DNA of 58,516 bases from a virus (Duplodnaviria; Caudoviricetes): positions 1 through 58,516 of the IMG/VR virus record IMGVR_UViG_3300023179_000123. One strand, 5' to 3'. The notes below the pieces were generated by a model. That model had not been told where the DNA came from. It ran no database searches and saw only the letters and a program-made list of their open reading frames with translations. Of the stretch, positions 48,422-58,516 are shown one piece after another. A program made the translations under genes and the position numbers. The first letter of the stretch is position 1. The number at the start of each line of letters is the position of its first letter.

Positions 48422-48457
48422 TTACTTCTCCTTTGTGTTTGTGTGTAATAATAAAAA

Positions 48458-48703
48458 GGCAGTTCTTTGGGTAACAAGGTGAACTGCCAATGCCCCGTCA
48501 GGTTTAAGCGGCTAGCTTAAGGTCCTGATAAAAATAGTCGTCGTTTGCGTCTATTTGCTTTTGCTAGGATTACGTCCTTCGCCTGTCGAGCAGCCTCAAA
48601 AGATACTTTACAGTCAATCGATACCAATTCATCCCCCTCGTCTTGGAGATGCCGAGATTCGAACTCGGGTCTTGCCCAGATTTCTCAATTTTGGTTTACT
48701 GCT
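48458..48703 (-). ncRNA. ssrA: tmRNA, circularly permuted (two-piece) gene
   Basis: Acceptor piece first (T-arm CCGAG-TTCGAAT-CTCGG, then CATCTCC-A ending at 48644), 7-nt spacer, then GGGGATG from 48636 (G3.U70). Tag ORF 48548-48504 ANDDYFYQDLKLAA* follows ATAGAC. Confidence 0.92.
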
Positions 48704-49370
48704 ATTCTTTAGTTAATCTTTCATATTCGTTTCTATACAATAACAAATACTTAACCCAATTATCCCTTTTTTCAAAAAATACTTGCGGGTAATCATTTTC
48801 TACAGCAATGATTATAACTAATCTATTTATTGGAACACCGGTTAATTCTTCGTACATTATGGAATATGCTGCACATTGCATAAAGTATGAATGGATATGA
48901 TCTTTTTCTTTTCTTCTCGATGAAGTTTTAAAATCAATTACCGCCAATTTGCCTTTATACTCACCTATACAATCAACTGTACCAGAAAGGCGCAGGTGAT
49001 TAGAATACATTTGTTGTTCTTGACAATGAACATTATCTATGTTTTCTAGTATAGGTTGAATAGATAGAAAATTTTTAAGATCGAAAGGATTTTTAATTTC
49101 ACAATCTTCATTATTAATGTATTTTTCAACTATACTGTGTAATCTTGTCCCTCTACTGGCAGCCGTTTTTGAGATTCTTAACGCCTCAGCTTCTCCAACT
49201 CTTTTACGCCATTCTATAAGTCCTTGTTTATTGTGTAAAGAAAGAATTGTAGTAACTGAAGGATACTTATTGCCGTCAGGTGTTATATAGTATCTGGTAC
49301 CATCTGGTCTTGTTACTCTTTCCAATTTAGGTATGGGCTTCGTTGTCCCAACATGATAAAATTGCTTCAA
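48702..49370 (-). CDS. PD-(D/E)XK exonuclease
   Basis: YPSVTTIL...RGTRLH...GTVDCI...IDFKTS...YFMQCAAY. Confidence 0.9.
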   Translation of the reverse strand: MKQFYHVGTTKPIPKLERVTRPDGTRYYITPDGNKYPSVTTILSLHNKQGLIEWRKRVGEAEALRISKTAASRGTRLHSIVEKYINNEDCEIKNPFDLKNFLSIQPILENIDNVHCQEQQMYSNHLRLSGTVDCIGEYKGKLAVIDFKTSSRRKEKDHIHSYFMQCAAYSIMYEELTGVPINRLVIIIAVENDYPQVFFEKRDNWVKYLLLYRNEYERLTKE

Positions 49371-53772: not shown

Positions 53773-54178
53773 TTACTTCTCCTCTGAATACTCTACATTT
53801 CCAATGTCCATAGTCTGTTTGTGACAACGTATAGGTTAAATTCTTTAAGCCTTTTAATTTATCAATAGAAGATATTTGAAGATTTGCTATTAAATATGGA
53901 TCCTCTACATCACCGATTGCGAATTCATGTAAAAACTCTCCATGAGATTTTTCTTCTTCCTTTTTAGGATCCCTTAATAATTTCCATGTATCATTAAAAG
54001 CCTCAGATAAACTATTATCAATTAATTCAAATTGATCTGATAATTCGTATAAAACTGTTTTTATTTCATCCTTCGACATTTCCTCAGCAGAAATACTTAA
54101 TGCCTTAAGCATTTTAATTCTAGTATGTAATTCCATGAGATTAGTTTCAAGAGTAGAAAGTGGTCTTTGTAATTTCAT
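53747..54178 (-). CDS. Hypothetical protein
   Basis: ATGA-coupled to the ligase gene. Confidence 0.7.
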   Translation of the reverse strand: MKLQRPLSTLETNLMELHTRIKMLKALSISAEEMSKDEIKTVLYELSDQFELIDNSLSEAFNDTWKLLRDPKKEEEKSHGEFLHEFAIGDVEDPYLIANLQISSIDKLKGLKNLTYTLSQTDYGHWKCRVFRGEVNDELAKSV

Positions 54179-55506
54179 TTAATCCTCTTACTATCATCAG
54201 CAACATTTTTATCTTCGCGTAATTCAATAAAAGTCGGCAAGAATAAACTTTCTACGTTGCCACCTTTGTCCTGAATACGAGCATTATATTTGACTGTGGC
54301 AATCTTTCCTACAGTATAGTCAACCGTAAATATATCTCGTTGTTCATCGGAATACCCTGAACCAACATTTACTCGAATCGCACCATCCGCTGATTCACAA
54401 ATTAATGCGCCAAGACGATTTTTATTCTTACCAGTACCTTTTTCCCAACCAACAATCATTAGATCGCATTCAAGTTCTGCTTTAAATTTAACTTGATCTT
54501 TACTTCGTTTGTCTTCCCAAATACCATGCATGGACTTAAGAATAATACCTTCTTGCCCTTCATCCAAAAACTTATTAAATAACTTATCTGCAGTATATTG
54601 ATTATCTACTACAATAGTTTCCACAATGTTAATTAGATTCTTAAGAGCAGACTTTTTTTGAAACTTAGCATGTTTATCAACTAATTCGCTGAAACGAGTC
54701 TTGTATGGAACATTGTATTTGCCTTCGAGAAAACCATTAATAGGAATCACATCCCATAAAGTAGCACGAACCATCTCGCCTTCTTTTTGAGACTGGGTAC
54801 CTTTAATTGCTTTGGTAAGAATACCATTGCCTGTTTTACGATCAAGTGGTTTGCCTGCACTATCAACAACTAAAAGCTCACCATCAAATACACAATCAAT
54901 ACCGTAAACTTCTGCAAAGTGAATAAATGCTTTACCAAATAAATCTGAAGCAATATCTAATTGTCTACCATTGCGACTTCTAAATTCTACTTTTCCACCA
55001 CGGACGATAGCGTTGAAGCGCATGCCATCCAACTTAAGCTGGACATAGGACGGGAATCCAATTTTATCGACAAGCTTCTGTTCGAATCCAGAAGCCAACA
55101 TGACTGGGTAGGTTTTGATAAGACCCGGCCAGATTTTGTTGATAGTGGGTTCACCGACTCCGCAACGAAGGTCTTGTTTGATGATCCTCTCAATAACGCT
55201 GGCATCTTTTTCATTTAGCGATTCCAAAATATAGGTTAGGTGTTCAATGGCGGCGTTGCCTGTCTTTTTACGAGTAGCGAATTCTTTTTCAAGTTCATTC
55301 ATTGCCCAATATAAGGTCGGAACAGGGATATAGACTTTGGATTGATATACTGGGATTTTTCGAATATAAAAACTAATCATCGGATCATATGCTAAACGAA
55401 ATGCATTTTTAAGTACATCGTTGCCAGCATGTTGCCGAAGAATCGCTTCTTTGGCAAGGCGCGAATTATCTGCAGCAAGAGCTTCTAGAATTTCAAATAC
55501 GCTCAT
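54175..55506 (-). CDS. gp30: ATP-dependent DNA ligase gp30
   Basis: KLDGMR motif I, FDGEL, EGIILK, LFLPTFIELREDK. Confidence 0.95.
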   Translation of the reverse strand: MSVFEILEALAADNSRLAKEAILRQHAGNDVLKNAFRLAYDPMISFYIRKIPVYQSKVYIPVPTLYWAMNELEKEFATRKKTGNAAIEHLTYILESLNEKDASVIERIIKQDLRCGVGEPTINKIWPGLIKTYPVMLASGFEQKLVDKIGFPSYVQLKLDGMRFNAIVRGGKVEFRSRNGRQLDIASDLFGKAFIHFAEVYGIDCVFDGELLVVDSAGKPLDRKTGNGILTKAIKGTQSQKEGEMVRATLWDVIPINGFLEGKYNVPYKTRFSELVDKHAKFQKKSALKNLINIVETIVVDNQYTADKLFNKFLDEGQEGIILKSMHGIWEDKRSKDQVKFKAELECDLMIVGWEKGTGKNKNRLGALICESADGAIRVNVGSGYSDEQRDIFTVDYTVGKIATVKYNARIQDKGGNVESLFLPTFIELREDKNVADDSKRIK

Positions 55507-55517
55507 TATAGTACCTA

Positions 55518-55655
55518 TTAAGAATAAAATACGTTAGCTTGTTTGTTGTTCTTTATTTTGCGTTTATACGCAGTCTTATCCTCTACAATACGAGGACGAT
55601 ATTTTGGCGTACGAAGATCTTTTGCTACAGGATTACGTCTTTTTACGGTTTTCAT
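55518..55655 (-). CDS. Small basic protein resembling ribosome rescue factor ArfA
   Basis: True start lies downstream of the promoter and GGAGA RBS: MKTVKRRNPVAKDLRTPKYRPRIVEDKTAYKRKIKNNKQANVFYS*. Confidence 0.6.
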   Translation of the reverse strand: MKTVKRRNPVAKDLRTPKYRPRIVEDKTAYKRKIKNNKQANVFYS

Positions 55656-55676
55656 CATCTTCTCCACTATTTCATT

Positions 55677-55705
55677 ATTATATAGTAAAATGATAGCCGT
55701 GTCAA
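55677..55705 (-). promoter_or_regulatory. Consensus sigma70-type early promoter
   Basis: TTGACA-17 nt-TATAAT. Confidence 0.88.
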
Positions 55706-55735
55706 CCGAAGGGTTATACATTATTTGCTTATTTT

Positions 55736-55927
55736 TTAAGCATGGAATGGTTGGATTTCAGTATTCACACCAAACGTTACAGATGCAAACGTGTGGTGCT
55801 CTTGTAAAATTCTATCTTTTTCTTGTTCCAATCTAGTTAGAGAATCATACACTCCAACAATTAAATTTTTTCTTACCCGGCCCTTTTTATCGTTCCATTT
55901 TGCTTCCAAAATATACAAATGTTTCAT
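55736..55927 (-). CDS. Hypothetical protein
   Basis: ATGA-coupled in the operon. Confidence 0.7.
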   Translation of the reverse strand: MKHLYILEAKWNDKKGRVRKNLIVGVYDSLTRLEQEKDRILQEHHTFASVTFGVNTEIQPFHA

Positions 55928-56271
55928 TTAATCATATCCTCTAAGGTAATGGAATCACCTGGTTGAACTTCAGCAATATGTTCCCATGTAGTAACATTAT
56001 CTGAAAACAAATCTACAATTTGAATAGGACTAAGTGCTTGGATATTTCCAGTAGTGTAACTATGGGTTGAATTCATACTTCCCCCACCTGTCAACACAGT
56101 ATATTGATTGGAGTTAAAAATACTAGATGAGGATAATGTATTTTTACTCGGAGCGTCTATCATTTTAAAAAATTTATCAACAGCATTTTCTAAGTCTTCC
56201 TTGAAATAGATACTCGAATCCTCATACGCGAATTTTTTCTGATCAGAATCAAACTCAATTTTGAACTTCAT
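55924..56271 (-). CDS. Hypothetical protein
   Basis: ATGA-coupled, GAGG RBS. Confidence 0.7.
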   Translation of the reverse strand: MKFKIEFDSDQKKFAYEDSSIYFKEDLENAVDKFFKMIDAPSKNTLSSSSIFNSNQYTVLTGGGSMNSTHSYTTGNIQALSPIQIVDLFSDNVTTWEHIAEVQPGDSITLEDMIK

Positions 56272-56543
56272 GCTACTTCCCTCATAGTTGCAGAATTGGT
56301 AATTGTTTCATATAGTGTTTCAAATTCTTCATGCTCTTCAATTTCAGCATTAAAATTTTGCTTATGATATACTTTTGCCATACGACGAAAAGTTTTCTTC
56401 GAAAGATTCTGCTCGTCGCAAATATTTTTAATTGCTTCTCGAATGAAATCTCTTTCTGCTTCAATACGAGTCATTGATCCACTAATTTCTTTCATGCAAT
56501 CAAGAATTGCTTTACGATCCGATGGACTTGATGGGATTGTCAT
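56268..56543 (-). CDS. DsbA-like double-stranded DNA-binding protein
   Basis: E.S.SMTRIEAERD.I...FRRMAKVYHKQNF..E..E...FE.LYE; near rnh as in T4. Confidence 0.65.
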   Translation of the reverse strand: MTIPSSPSDRKAILDCMKEISGSMTRIEAERDFIREAIKNICDEQNLSKKTFRRMAKVYHKQNFNAEIEEHEEFETLYETITNSATMREVA

Positions 56544-56557
56544 AATATACCTTTAAA

Positions 56558-56938
56558 TTAGCGACGCATACTTGCAAAGTCTTTTGCCTGTTCGTCGCTG
56601 AAGACAGGTTGCAGACAAGATTTATGAACAATAGAAACACCCAGTACCTTGTTGCCAGTATAAACAGGATTTTCTTTTTTAGCAGCAACAGACGCACCAC
56701 TGTCATGACTTTTGATATGAGATGTAGTATCTCTACCCGGAGGAATCTTAGGTAGACTAATTGATCTAGTGATGAAACGAGGGATCCCAGTTTTCTTGGT
56801 CTCAAGTTTTTTCTGCAACTGAGACCATTCAATTTCAAGTTCTAATGCTTTGCGTTTTGCCTCAGCAGAGGCAAACTTAATCTTACCTTTTTTCTTTCCA
56901 GTTGTGGAAAGCCAGGGACCAACTAGATGCATTGTCAT
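56558..56938 (-). CDS. Conserved basic hypothetical early protein
   Basis: AGGAG RBS; YTG..VLGVSIVHKSCLQPVFS...A.DFASMRR. Confidence 0.8.
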   Translation of the reverse strand: MTMHLVGPWLSTTGKKKGKIKFASAEAKRKALELEIEWSQLQKKLETKKTGIPRFITRSISLPKIPPGRDTTSHIKSHDSGASVAAKKENPVYTGNKVLGVSIVHKSCLQPVFSDEQAKDFASMRR

Positions 56939-56962
56939 AACAAACTCCTATCAATAACGATT

Positions 56963-56991
56963 ATTATATAGTAAACAGTATTACTTGTCAA
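56963..56991 (-). promoter_or_regulatory. Consensus sigma70-type early promoter
   Basis: TTGACA-17 nt-TATAAT. Confidence 0.9.
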
Positions 56992-57139
56992 ATGCCCTGT
57001 ATTTCATAAAACCTATTGATCTAGAATCATAAACTGGATCTTTAGGTATTATTCCAGAAATTGACCACTCACTTGGTTTAGGTAGGTCCCTTTTGGGTGG
57101 TCTAAAGTAGTCTATTATTTTTTGGAAGGGACCGAAGGC
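56981..57139 (-). CDS. 52-codon -1 frame extension of the 57115..57612 gene (predicted frameshift product)
   Basis: Open frame AFGPFQKIIDYFRPPKRDLPKPSEWSISGIIPKDPVYDSRSIGFMKYRAFDK* has no usable start and begins at A_AAA_AAG. Confidence 0.65.
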   Translation of the reverse strand, partial: AFGPFQKIIDYFRPPKRDLPKPSEWSISGIIPKDPVYDSRSIGFMKYRAFDK

Positions 57140-57145
57140 TTTTTT
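57063..57145 (-). promoter_or_regulatory. Predicted -1 ribosomal frameshift signal (slippery heptamer plus pseudoknot)
   Basis: A_AAA_AAG 57145-57139; stem GGTCCCTT/AAGGGACC; second stem GACCAC/GTGGTC. Confidence 0.7.
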
Positions 57146-57612
57146 GCTAGTTTTTTCTTTTCTTCAACTACAGGATTTTCTGTCGGTGGCGGCAGTAATC
57201 CGGGGAAAGCCTCAAAAACTAATTCATAACTAAGAGAGGAATACTTGGTTTCAAGTTTACGATCTTTTGCTAAGCACAATGCTTCAGCTTCTTGCCAATG
57301 AATACCCTCTAGTAATTGAACAAACAATTGTTCTTTACGAATCTTGGTCAAATTTACATCATCACGAGTCCAGATGTAAATTCTTCTAAATTCAGCATAC
57401 AAATTAGTTTCTGAATATCCGTATGGAATTTCTTTATCCTTTTTAAAAGGAGGTTCACCCTCAGGTAAATTTACTTTAGCAAGAGGGTGGTAATTAATCT
57501 CAAGAAGCCCCTTTAGAGGAAGGGACTCATACTTTCGCAATACTGCAATTTTATCTTGTTTGGTTTTTACTTTTTCAACTTCCTCAAATACTTGAGGTAC
57601 AAATGTTTTCAT
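57115..57612 (-). CDS. Conserved T4-like hypothetical protein
   Basis: LPEGEPPF...LYAEFRR.Y.W...RKEQLFVQLLEGIH..EA; TAATG-coupled to rnh. Confidence 0.85.
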   Translation of the reverse strand: MKTFVPQVFEEVEKVKTKQDKIAVLRKYESLPLKGLLEINYHPLAKVNLPEGEPPFKKDKEIPYGYSETNLYAEFRRIYIWTRDDVNLTKIRKEQLFVQLLEGIHWQEAEALCLAKDRKLETKYSSLSYELVFEAFPGLLPPPTENPVVEEKKKLAKKPSVPSKK

Positions 57613-58502
57613 TAAAAATCTCCAATAACATCCATCATGTTCTTCATTTTGTTCATGATGAAATAGTTAAGCAAATGGCTTCTATCTTTTGATGGTTGAT
57701 CCACAAAGTTATTTATAATAGCTTCTTTTACATTTGATGGAATCATTGTAAAATCTACAAGTTGCTTATTTCTGTTATAGTTTTTAATAAAAATGTCATC
57801 TGTAGGCATTGAGGATGGATTATCTAACCACGACGATAACCTTTTTGAGGAAATTGGCTTTTGTCGTTCCCCAGCAACGATTGAGTCGTCTCCGGATAAG
57901 ACATTTGGGACTCCATCACCTTTATCGCCCCGGATTGTATGTTCCAATACATATCTCTCCGGCGTTGTGTCAGCTTTAACATATTTCTTTTGAATCGAAG
58001 AGAATTGTTTGACATTCTTGTACCTCTGCAATTGAATGAAATCATGATCGCCAGAAATAATCAAAAATGGTTTTGGATCTCCATCAGCAAAAGGTGAAGC
58101 GTTTACTAGATCATTTGTCTGAGACCACTCTGCAAGAACAGCAATGACATCATCAGCTTCTGCTCCGTCGACATTTACAACTCTGTATGGAAATACTGCA
58201 GCAATTTCATCTCTAATAGTAGACAAGGTCTCAAAGATCATCTTCCAGTCATAACCAGATTCTTCTCTTGCCTTTTTTCGCATTGCTTTGTAGTATGGAA
58301 AAACATCTCGGCGCCAGTAATTACGATTATCGCAAGCAATGACAATATTGCCAAATTCTTGACCGAATTTGACCTTGTAACTTCTAATCGAATTGATAAT
58401 CATATGTCGAATCAAACCAACATTGATCTCTACATCTGTTCTGCCGCCAAGTTCCATCATTAGATTGGAAATAGCGGTTTGATTGTAATCAACTACTATC
58501 AC
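57612..58502 (-). CDS. rnh: T4-type RNase H / 5'-3' exonuclease
   Basis: IVVDYNQ, YWRRDVFPYYKA.R, AEADDVI, ISGDHDFIQLQ, GDKGDGVPN. Confidence 0.95.
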   Translation of the reverse strand: MIVVDYNQTAISNLMMELGGRTDVEINVGLIRHMIINSIRSYKVKFGQEFGNIVIACDNRNYWRRDVFPYYKAMRKKAREESGYDWKMIFETLSTIRDEIAAVFPYRVVNVDGAEADDVIAVLAEWSQTNDLVNASPFADGDPKPFLIISGDHDFIQLQRYKNVKQFSSIQKKYVKADTTPERYVLEHTIRGDKGDGVPNVLSGDDSIVAGERQKPISSKRLSSWLDNPSSMPTDDIFIKNYNRNKQLVDFTMIPSNVKEAIINNFVDQPSKDRSHLLNYFIMNKMKNMMDVIGDF

Positions 58503-58516
58503 TTTCTTTAGCCTCA

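Follow-up and report, generated by a model that had tools for sequence, protein, structure and literature searches.

A short basic peptide of an uncultured T4-like freshwater phage resembles a GKG-less branch of the ribosome rescue factor ArfA

Introduction

The closest described system to the gene analysed here is ArfA (YhdL) of Escherichia coli, the Pfam family PF03889, which is seen with release factor 2 (RF2) on the ribosome in structures 5MDV, 5H5U, 5U4I and 5MGP. Our gene lies in a 58,516-base stretch of viral DNA (IMG/VR record IMGVR_UViG_3300023179_000123, positions 1 to 58,516; hereafter the window), which has 34% G+C and is estimated to be 35% complete, and it encodes a basic peptide of 45 residues. 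As judged by sequence comparison, the gene is a phage copy of a short branch of ArfA that does without the Gly-Lys-Gly (GKG) of the KGKGS loop and that Pfam files as DUF7230. The source is an uncultured T4-like freshwater myophage, of the kind of OM43 phage Melnitz and the pelagimyophages.

In the excerpts available from two papers on ArfA (PMC8012679, PMC5378476), residues 21–30 of the E. coli protein lie in the A site and residues 31–48 in the mRNA tunnel. Pro23 packs against A1492/A1493, Q27–E30 form a strand that is added to the RF2 sheet, and L19, L24 and F25 contact W319, V198 and F217 of RF2, L19 and L24 explaining why, in E. coli, RF2 is strictly preferred to RF1. The A18T substitution leaves RF2 recruitment in place and blocks activation; ArfA cut at N47 is the shortest active form, and ArfA cut after M40 is inactive. 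A KH pair, common to ArfA and BrfA, occupies a pocket of the tunnel. According to the same excerpts, E. coli arfA is translated from an mRNA with no stop codon, and is hence repressed by transfer-messenger RNA (tmRNA).

BrfA of Bacillus subtilis and ArfT of Francisella can be likened to the phage peptide by mode, the action proposed for all of them being a basic tail in the channel and a strand on the RF2 sheet. The KH pair of BrfA and ArfA is also part of the DUF7230 consensus.

Phage genes have been assigned to ArfA before. In the available parts of the two phage papers, gp30 of Pelagibacter phage HTVC027P is annotated as ArfA from a match to PF03889 and is highly expressed both early and late (PMC12753301), g10 of Citromicrobium phage RXM is annotated as ArfA on a basis that the passage does not give, and neither text contains an activity test (PMC8953757, PMC12753301). 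Compared by description, these genes are like ours in being a phage-encoded ArfA lineage in phages of Alphaproteobacteria; unlike gp30, the window's peptide falls under DUF7230 and is annotated as 'hypothetical'. A literature search that covered articles without their supplementary files found phage ArfA at the level of annotation, for HTVC027P gp30 and RXM g10, and did not find the name 'DUF7230'. In bacteria, arfA is recorded for 0 of 2,376 Alphaproteobacteria by a survey that covered 15,259 genomes, in the part of that article available (PMC11633108). A two-piece tmRNA has been described in phage Melnitz and the pelagimyophages, in a paper whose available text has no occurrence of ArfA (PMC9004378).

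Results

The peptide is encoded by a genuine gene under purifying selection

Read on the minus strand from 55658 to 55518, the frame translates as MMKTVKRRNPVAKDLRTPKYRPRIVEDKTAYKRKIKNNKQANVFYS followed by a stop, giving 46 residues from the first ATG and 45 from the second (55655). The second ATG and the GGAG ahead of it are both present in each of 28 related viral loci, and the codon before that ATG is itself ATG in just 10 of the 28. We therefore take the 45-residue form to be the gene, and the length agrees with that of the basic open reading frame (ORF) reported in a preliminary description made from the letters of the window alone. The product has an isoelectric point of 10.9, with 15 Lys or Arg and 3 Asp or Glu among its residues. 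Public gene calls in this phage group (P0002–P0050) mostly use a 67-residue frame, the equivalent of which in the window is 55518–55721; since this frame begins upstream of a conserved promoter, its start is probably mis-called.

The mean ratio of non-synonymous to synonymous polymorphism (pN/pS) of the gene is 0.152 (29 coding sequences, 22 of them unique), and its variable sites are distributed 11/8/35 over codon positions 1, 2 and 3. A stop codon ends the gene in 28 of 28 relatives (TGA in 25, TAA in 3), and in these 28 the start of the next gene follows within about a dozen bases. We conclude from the low pN/pS and the concentration of variation at third positions that this is a real, constrained gene. 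The frame is very short, and the public calls start upstream of its promoter, which is what can be said for a chance frame lying behind a promoter that serves the neighbouring ligase gene. That explanation is already refuted by conservation: the constraint just described and the invariably kept GGAG and start codon speak against it, as does the existence of a dedicated Pfam family with 967 matching clusters, and we give it practically no chance.

Profile comparisons connect the peptide to ArfA

The peptide matches Pfam PF23876 (DUF7230) with 29.7 bits (cut-off 27, E = 6.8e-7), residues 6–41 aligning to positions 2–36 of the 42 in the model. None of its PHROGs matches (20887, 2701 and 6310) has a known function, and an NCBIfam scan of the peptide returned 0 families. 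A word-seeded search recovered 58 relatives, 53 of them 78–100% identical to the query and those that carry any name being called 'hypothetical', and a full profile search recovered 967 representative clusters (50% identity) at E ≤ 1e-3. The clusters are nearly all 36–70 residues long and share the consensus R-N-P-x-A-K-D-L-R-T-P-K-Y-R-x-R-V-V-x-S-K-K-x-Y-x-R-K-x-K. Relatives are encoded at 394 positions in viral contigs and at 50 loci in bacterial genomes. A representative of 135 residues, P0268, has the family motif at its N terminus followed by about 100 more residues, and may be a fusion or a read-through call.

Compared as a single sequence, the peptide does not find ArfA. Neither the peptide nor any of the six frames of the window matches PF03889 at E ≤ 10, BLASTP yields no alignment with the E. 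coli ArfA of NC_000913, and phmmer against solved structures returns no ArfA, the best match being a lipoprotein with an E of 2.4. At the level of the family the result is different. When 149 family members were scanned singly against Pfam, 108 matched PF23876 and 17 matched PF03889 (E ≤ 1, best 6.8e-8). An hhalign comparison of the 149-sequence alignment with 20 enterobacterial ArfA sequences gave a probability of 82.2% (E = 1e-5, 40 columns), and the 10 closest relatives alone gave 37% (E = 3.5e-4). To exclude help from sequences intermediate between the two families, we also used a restricted set of the 117 members in which two aromatic residues lie 11 apart. Of the 32 dropped, 26 were not placed by the pattern, 3 were mis-measured, 2 had a spacing of 14, which is that of ArfA, and 1 had a spacing of 12. 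The restricted set matched ArfA with a probability of 85.5% (E = 5.6e-6).

The score of this match is well separated from chance. Against a real score of 27.6, shuffling the columns (1–56) of the ArfA alignment 300 times gave a maximum of 18.4 and a median of 7.7, the real value never being attained, and the reversed ArfA alignment scored 10.9. The ArfA profile itself is shallow, since the homologue search for it yielded near-identical enterobacterial sequences only. When the family profile was run against 177,635 distinct solved-structure sequences, it retrieved 6 ArfA sequences with E from 1.7e-4 to 1.5e-3, and the next match was uS14 at E = 0.91. An Atlas look-up, made with the stored homologue P0047 as query rather than with the window's exact peptide, placed at rank 14 a cluster (score 0.91) in which 23% of the members have PF03889; we treat this as a lead only.

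In the profile alignments there is a single gap, of 3 residues, exactly at the GKG of KGKGS. The preliminary description had aligned the peptide to an E. coli ArfA core, noting a shared residue spacing and the absence of KGKGS. The core given there is correct, being identical to residues 14–42 of arfA translated from NC_000913; the alignment and spacing are reproduced by the profile comparison with the one gap and exceed chance in the shuffles (0/300); and the window indeed reads KT-AYKRK where KGKGS would stand. A profile check against ArfA, named there beforehand as the test that could speak against the idea, found similarity at hhalign probabilities of 82–86%. The part of that idea concerning remote homology to ArfA is thus borne out by profiles, shuffles and structures, and the part concerning rescue activity is one that we infer.

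Could the likeness to ArfA arise simply from a composition rich in Lys and Arg, the peptide being a generic small basic binder of nucleic acid with no role at the ribosome? Its high isoelectric point and its 15 basic residues in 45 would suit such a protein, as would the lack of any single-sequence match to ArfA and the neighbouring genes of DNA metabolism (ligase, DsbA-like protein, RNase H). The shuffles preserve composition, however, and both they and the reversed alignment fall far below the real score; ArfA is the sole significant match among the solved-structure sequences, 17 family members match the Pfam ArfA model directly, and intermediates that carry KGKGS exist. We consider a generic binder very unlikely, and conclude that the peptide is, on the strength of these comparisons, very probably homologous to ArfA.

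Intermediates and chromosomal relatives bridge the two families

Natural sequences join the features of DUF7230 and ArfA. P0297 has the N-terminal half of DUF7230 followed by KKGKGAYSRK, and P0254 has KKGRGTWKR. At 11 loci of Pelagibacteraceae, ORFs of 35–40 residues combine N-x-I-A-K-D-L-R-S/T-P-K-Y-R/K-x-R-I/V-V with KKGKGSF-x-R-K, and one such ORF scores 30.5 bits on PF03889, for which the cut-off is 25.5. Other genomes, SAR11-like, HIMB59-like and SAR86, encode the form that lacks GKG. These intermediates and GKG-less chromosomal forms indicate that the GKG loop is a variable feature within one family.

PF03889 is matched at E ≤ 0.01 in 65 of 151 sampled Pelagibacterales genomes, and the cut-off is exceeded in 26. 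The carriers include the unpublished genome G462; leaving it out gives 64 of 150. The matches fall in open frames of 33–70 residues in 62 of the 65, the other 3, in frames of about 366 residues, being probably spurious. DUF7230 matches occur in 5 of the 151 genomes, with an overlap of 0 with the 65 PF03889 carriers. We rejected mutual exclusion of the two models in Pelagibacterales as too weak a pattern, about 2 shared carriers being expected by chance. In 301 genomes around one bacterial carrier there were just 11 PF03889 matches.

Housekeeping genes surround the chromosomal copies: some follow polA and adjoin ribonucleotide reductase, others are flanked by a response regulator and a sugar kinase. 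Given that the published survey lists no arfA in any of its Alphaproteobacteria, the mini-ArfA genes of Pelagibacterales (for example at loci L020 and L138) appear to have been overlooked. These unnamed, PF03889-matching genes, which encode 33–57 residues, share with the phage peptide a near-identical N-terminal half, a basic tail and a stop codon of their own; they differ from it in keeping KGKGS, in ending earlier (35 residues) and in being cellular.

The A-site core of ArfA is retained and part of its RF2 contact surface is changed

Residue counts below are for the 117-sequence restricted alignment, and the roles of the ArfA residues are those given in the excerpts cited above. The peptide corresponds to ArfA residues 7 to 54 and extends 7 residues past the equivalent of N47. 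P18 (ArfA P23) and R33 (R41) are kept in all 117 sequences, and the positions of Y20 (F25) and Y31 (Y39) are aromatic in all 117. L15 (L20) is kept in 114, N9 (N14) and R23 (R28) in 106 each, K34 (K42) in 97 and K28 (K33) in 96; the position of R21 (R26) is R or K in 113, and that of I24 (V29) is V or I in 109. As far as alignment goes, then, the A-site core of Pro23, the aromatic residue 25, R26, R28 and the strand 27–30 is retained in the peptide. Residues 26–39 include 8 Lys or Arg. We consider it probable from this analysis that the peptide binds the ribosome in the mRNA channel.

The proposal that the peptide also acts as ArfA does, through RF2, has to be set against several observations, beyond the missing single-sequence matches. 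Within the hydrophobic patch L19/L24/F25 and the small residue at 18, the aromatic alone is retained: K13 stands at the position of A18, D14 at that of L19 and K19 at that of L24, and these changes are themselves conserved (in 92, 104 and 113 of 117 sequences). The conserved KGKGS loop has lost its GKG. Where ArfA has KH this phage clade has KN, with H found in 45 of 117. Finally, the design that yields a stop-less mRNA, a hairpin or terminator within the ORF, was looked for and is absent; the gene has its own stop, with the start of the ligase gene 11 nucleotides on. A further position, A12 at ArfA E17, is also changed and is conserved as such in 115 of 117.

One way to account for these changes is that the peptide is an ArfA-derived plug of the A site and channel that does not activate RF2, and serves as a blocker or modulator; it might hold stalled ribosomes, compete with the host's SmpB-tmRNA or ArfB, or steer ribosomes to the phage tmRNA. 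K13 lies at the very position at which A18T allows RF2 to be recruited and not activated, D14 and K19 replace residues of the W319-binding patch, and the loss of the GKG loop is accompanied by an N-terminal tail that is 5 residues shorter. On the other hand, the same N-terminal half (AKDLR-T/S-PKY) is found in Pelagibacteraceae, SAR86 and other bacteria, in chromosomal genes that lie in housekeeping neighbourhoods, as well as in the Pelagibacteraceae ORF that exceeds the Pfam ArfA cut-off. A dominant blocker of rescue is unlikely as a resident gene of the cell, which disfavours the plug. P18, Y20 and the RF2-docking strand R-x-R-V/I-V are, moreover, nearly invariant. Overall, a plug seems to us unlikely.

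A second way is to regard the peptide as a rescue adaptor that shares the ancestry of ArfA and has another partner, be it RF1 as well as RF2 or a different GGQ protein. There is precedent in Francisella ArfT, which uses both RF1 and RF2. The residues that replace L19 and L24 are conserved, and it is the E. coli residues at these positions that set the choice of RF2 over RF1. Against this, 5 bacteria with genes of this kind have an RF2 that retains V/I198, F217, W319 and the switch loop, and in the peptide the stretch that forms the strand is kept, as is an aromatic residue in place of F25. No compensating RF2 change was seen at V/I198, F217 or W319 in these 5 carriers; the docking surface of RF2 therefore exists in the likely host lineages. 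We regard a different partner as distinctly unlikely. Taking these points together, we lean, with reserve, towards ArfA-like, release-factor-dependent rescue by the phage peptide.

The gene is first behind a conserved host-type promoter

The peptide gene follows a promoter of sigma-70 type, TTGACA-17-TATAAT, in which all 12 hexamer positions agree with the consensus (Table 1). The preliminary description had called the ORF the first gene after a perfect promoter of this type, and this stands: the promoter is conserved and no other gene intervenes. Promoter-like sites of this class are not enriched in 54000–58516 (16, compared with 16.7 ± 4.2 in shuffled sequence), so the case for this particular promoter rests on its conservation. 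That the peptide gene is of early type, with a promoter of the host's kind ahead of it, is supported. A second perfect TTGACA-17-TATAAT occurs at 56963–56991 (minus strand), just 5′ of an ORF of 126 residues (56558–56938) that matches phrog_27048, of unknown function.

No terminator-like site was found on the minus strand at the peptide gene or before the ligase gene, and folding revealed no excess structure, with z of −1.04 for the 3′ part of the message and −0.03 for the whole message. Because the gene ends in its own stop codon, the peptide would be made regardless of tmRNA activity. The gene is unlike that of E. coli in being phage-borne, in its early-type promoter and in having no hairpin or terminator to make its mRNA stop-less.

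The peptide gene and the tmRNA vary independently

The preliminary description also claimed that the phage carries a tmRNA, and held that the peptide might provide a second rescue route alongside it. The tmRNA is present, as a two-piece (permuted) molecule whose match to its Rfam model far exceeds the cut-off (Table 1). The model RF01850 gives an envelope at 48452–48754 (minus strand) with 84.6 bits, for a cut-off of 84. The tag frame, as read from the alignment, is ANDDYFYQDLKLAA followed by a stop and ends in KLAA. ARAGORN reported no tmRNA in the window, and no glutamine riboswitch scored over the Rfam threshold there. A gene for SmpB was found neither in the window nor in 5 near-complete relatives, so the tmRNA must use host SmpB. 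Our phage is of the same T4-like aquatic kind as Melnitz and the pelagimyophages, and its tmRNA is of the same type as theirs.

A permuted tmRNA accompanies the relative of the peptide in each of the 5 near-complete genomes (96–100%) that encode one. In 43 fragments (5–58% complete), a tmRNA match was found in 7, in 6 of them over the cut-off. We also picked 80 relatives by their RNase H; nearly all were short fragments, and the five longest (14–69% complete) were used. A tmRNA over the cut-off is present in 4 of these five and the peptide gene in 1. When the interval from RNase H to the tmRNA was searched locally with high sensitivity, the peptide gene was found in the window at 69.8 bits and in one relative at 57.9 bits; in the same interval of L243–L246 (G503–G506), which keep RNase H and tmRNA, no peptide gene was found, the best E being 1.6 or worse. 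Conversely, no tmRNA over the cut-off was found in two complete isolates that encode a peptide homologue, Acj61 and HTVC115P.

We conclude that the tmRNA is a trait of the phage lineage, and that the peptide gene is a separately gained and lost accessory and not part of one operon with it. Peptide and tmRNA as one paired system, the co-occurrence of which had been proposed as a check, are not supported by this comparison, the two genes varying independently in related phages. Both may nevertheless serve ribosome rescue.

Genomic neighbourhood

The features discussed are collected in Table 1. A megablast of 54000–58516 against named phages gave zero matches. The contigs that carry relatives of the peptide are 164–171 kb long. 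In cultured T4-like phages of Acinetobacter (Acj61, ZZ1, Ac42, Henu6 and others), a 'hypothetical' homologue adjoins the rIIA region; that of Acj61 is Acj61p003 (L151, positions 2507–2632 of the record), near rIIA. The homologue in Pelagibacter phage HTVC115P is gp18.

Table 1 Features of the window around the ArfA-like peptide gene and at the tmRNA
Feature	Position	Strand	Remarks
ArfA-like peptide coding sequence (DUF7230)	55518..55655	-	45 codons, stop TAA 55520-55518; Pfam PF23876 match, pN/pS, profile link to ArfA
Shine-Dalgarno GGAG	55662..55665	-	6 nucleotides 5′ of start codon; present in 28/28 related loci
-10 hexamer TATAAT	55677..55682	-	17-nucleotide spacer from -35; kept in 27/28 related loci (L080: TATACT)
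-35 hexamer TTGACA	55700..55705	-	With -10, 12/12 match; kept in 28/28 related loci
ATP-dependent DNA ligase	54175..55506	-	PF01068, PF14743, PF04675; start 11 nucleotides past peptide stop, no terminator between
DsbA-like transcription regulator	56268-56543	-	Same strand as peptide gene
T4-type RNase H	57612-58502	-	Same strand as peptide gene
DUF6433 protein		-	Same strand as peptide gene, and its neighbour
PhoH, exonuclease and endolysin-like genes			Further on; same strand as peptide gene
Two-piece (permuted) tmRNA	48504..48703	-	Rfam RF04321, 111.4 bits (cut-off 47), model 1-213 of 213; about 6.8 kb downstream of peptide gene

Discussion

The peptide is like E. coli ArfA in being small and basic, in sharing a core of N, L, P, an aromatic residue, R-x-R-V/I and K...Y-x-R-K followed by a basic tail, and in covering the minimal active length. 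It is unlike E. coli ArfA in its shorter N-terminal tail and in lacking the hydrophobic C-terminal extension. What appears to be new here, from these sequence comparisons, is a phage relative of ArfA that is short, GKG-less and constitutively expressed.

T4-like phages destroy host messages early in infection, which should strand ribosomes on truncated mRNAs. We propose that host RNA polymerase would transcribe the peptide and ligase genes together from the consensus sigma-70 promoter, and that the basic C-terminal half of the peptide (about residues 26–45) would enter the mRNA channel that stands empty when a ribosome has stalled at the 3′ end of a truncated message. The middle of the peptide (P18, Y20, R21, R23 and I24–V25) would occupy the A site, where the core P-x-Y-R-x-R-V/I-V would dock host RF2. 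RF2 would then free the nascent peptide with no need of a stop codon, making the ribosome available for phage messages. Freeing stranded ribosomes in this way would aid phage translation, above all in small, ribosome-poor cells. A role against RNA-cutting defences of the host is also possible.

More tentatively, DUF7230 as a whole could be an unrecognised, GKG-less class of ArfA-type adaptors that forms the main release-factor-dependent back-up of streamlined aquatic bacteria (relatives of SAR11, and SAR86). Many large phages would have captured it, expressing it constitutively, with a normal stop codon and from early promoters, to strip ribosomes off broken host messages independently of the phage tmRNA. 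We hold this broader picture to be plausible, though somewhat short of an even chance.

If the peptide acts as we propose, a role would be assigned to a large family of 'unknown function', with its 967 clusters and 394 viral loci. ArfA-type rescue would reach into the Alphaproteobacteria, and phages would be actively supplying ribosome rescue, beside the tmRNA described for this group in the available part of PMC9004378. With the GKG loop and two residues of the RF2 contact naturally lost, the peptide reveals which portions of ArfA may be dispensable, and the cultured Acinetobacter phages that carry a homologue offer a tractable system.

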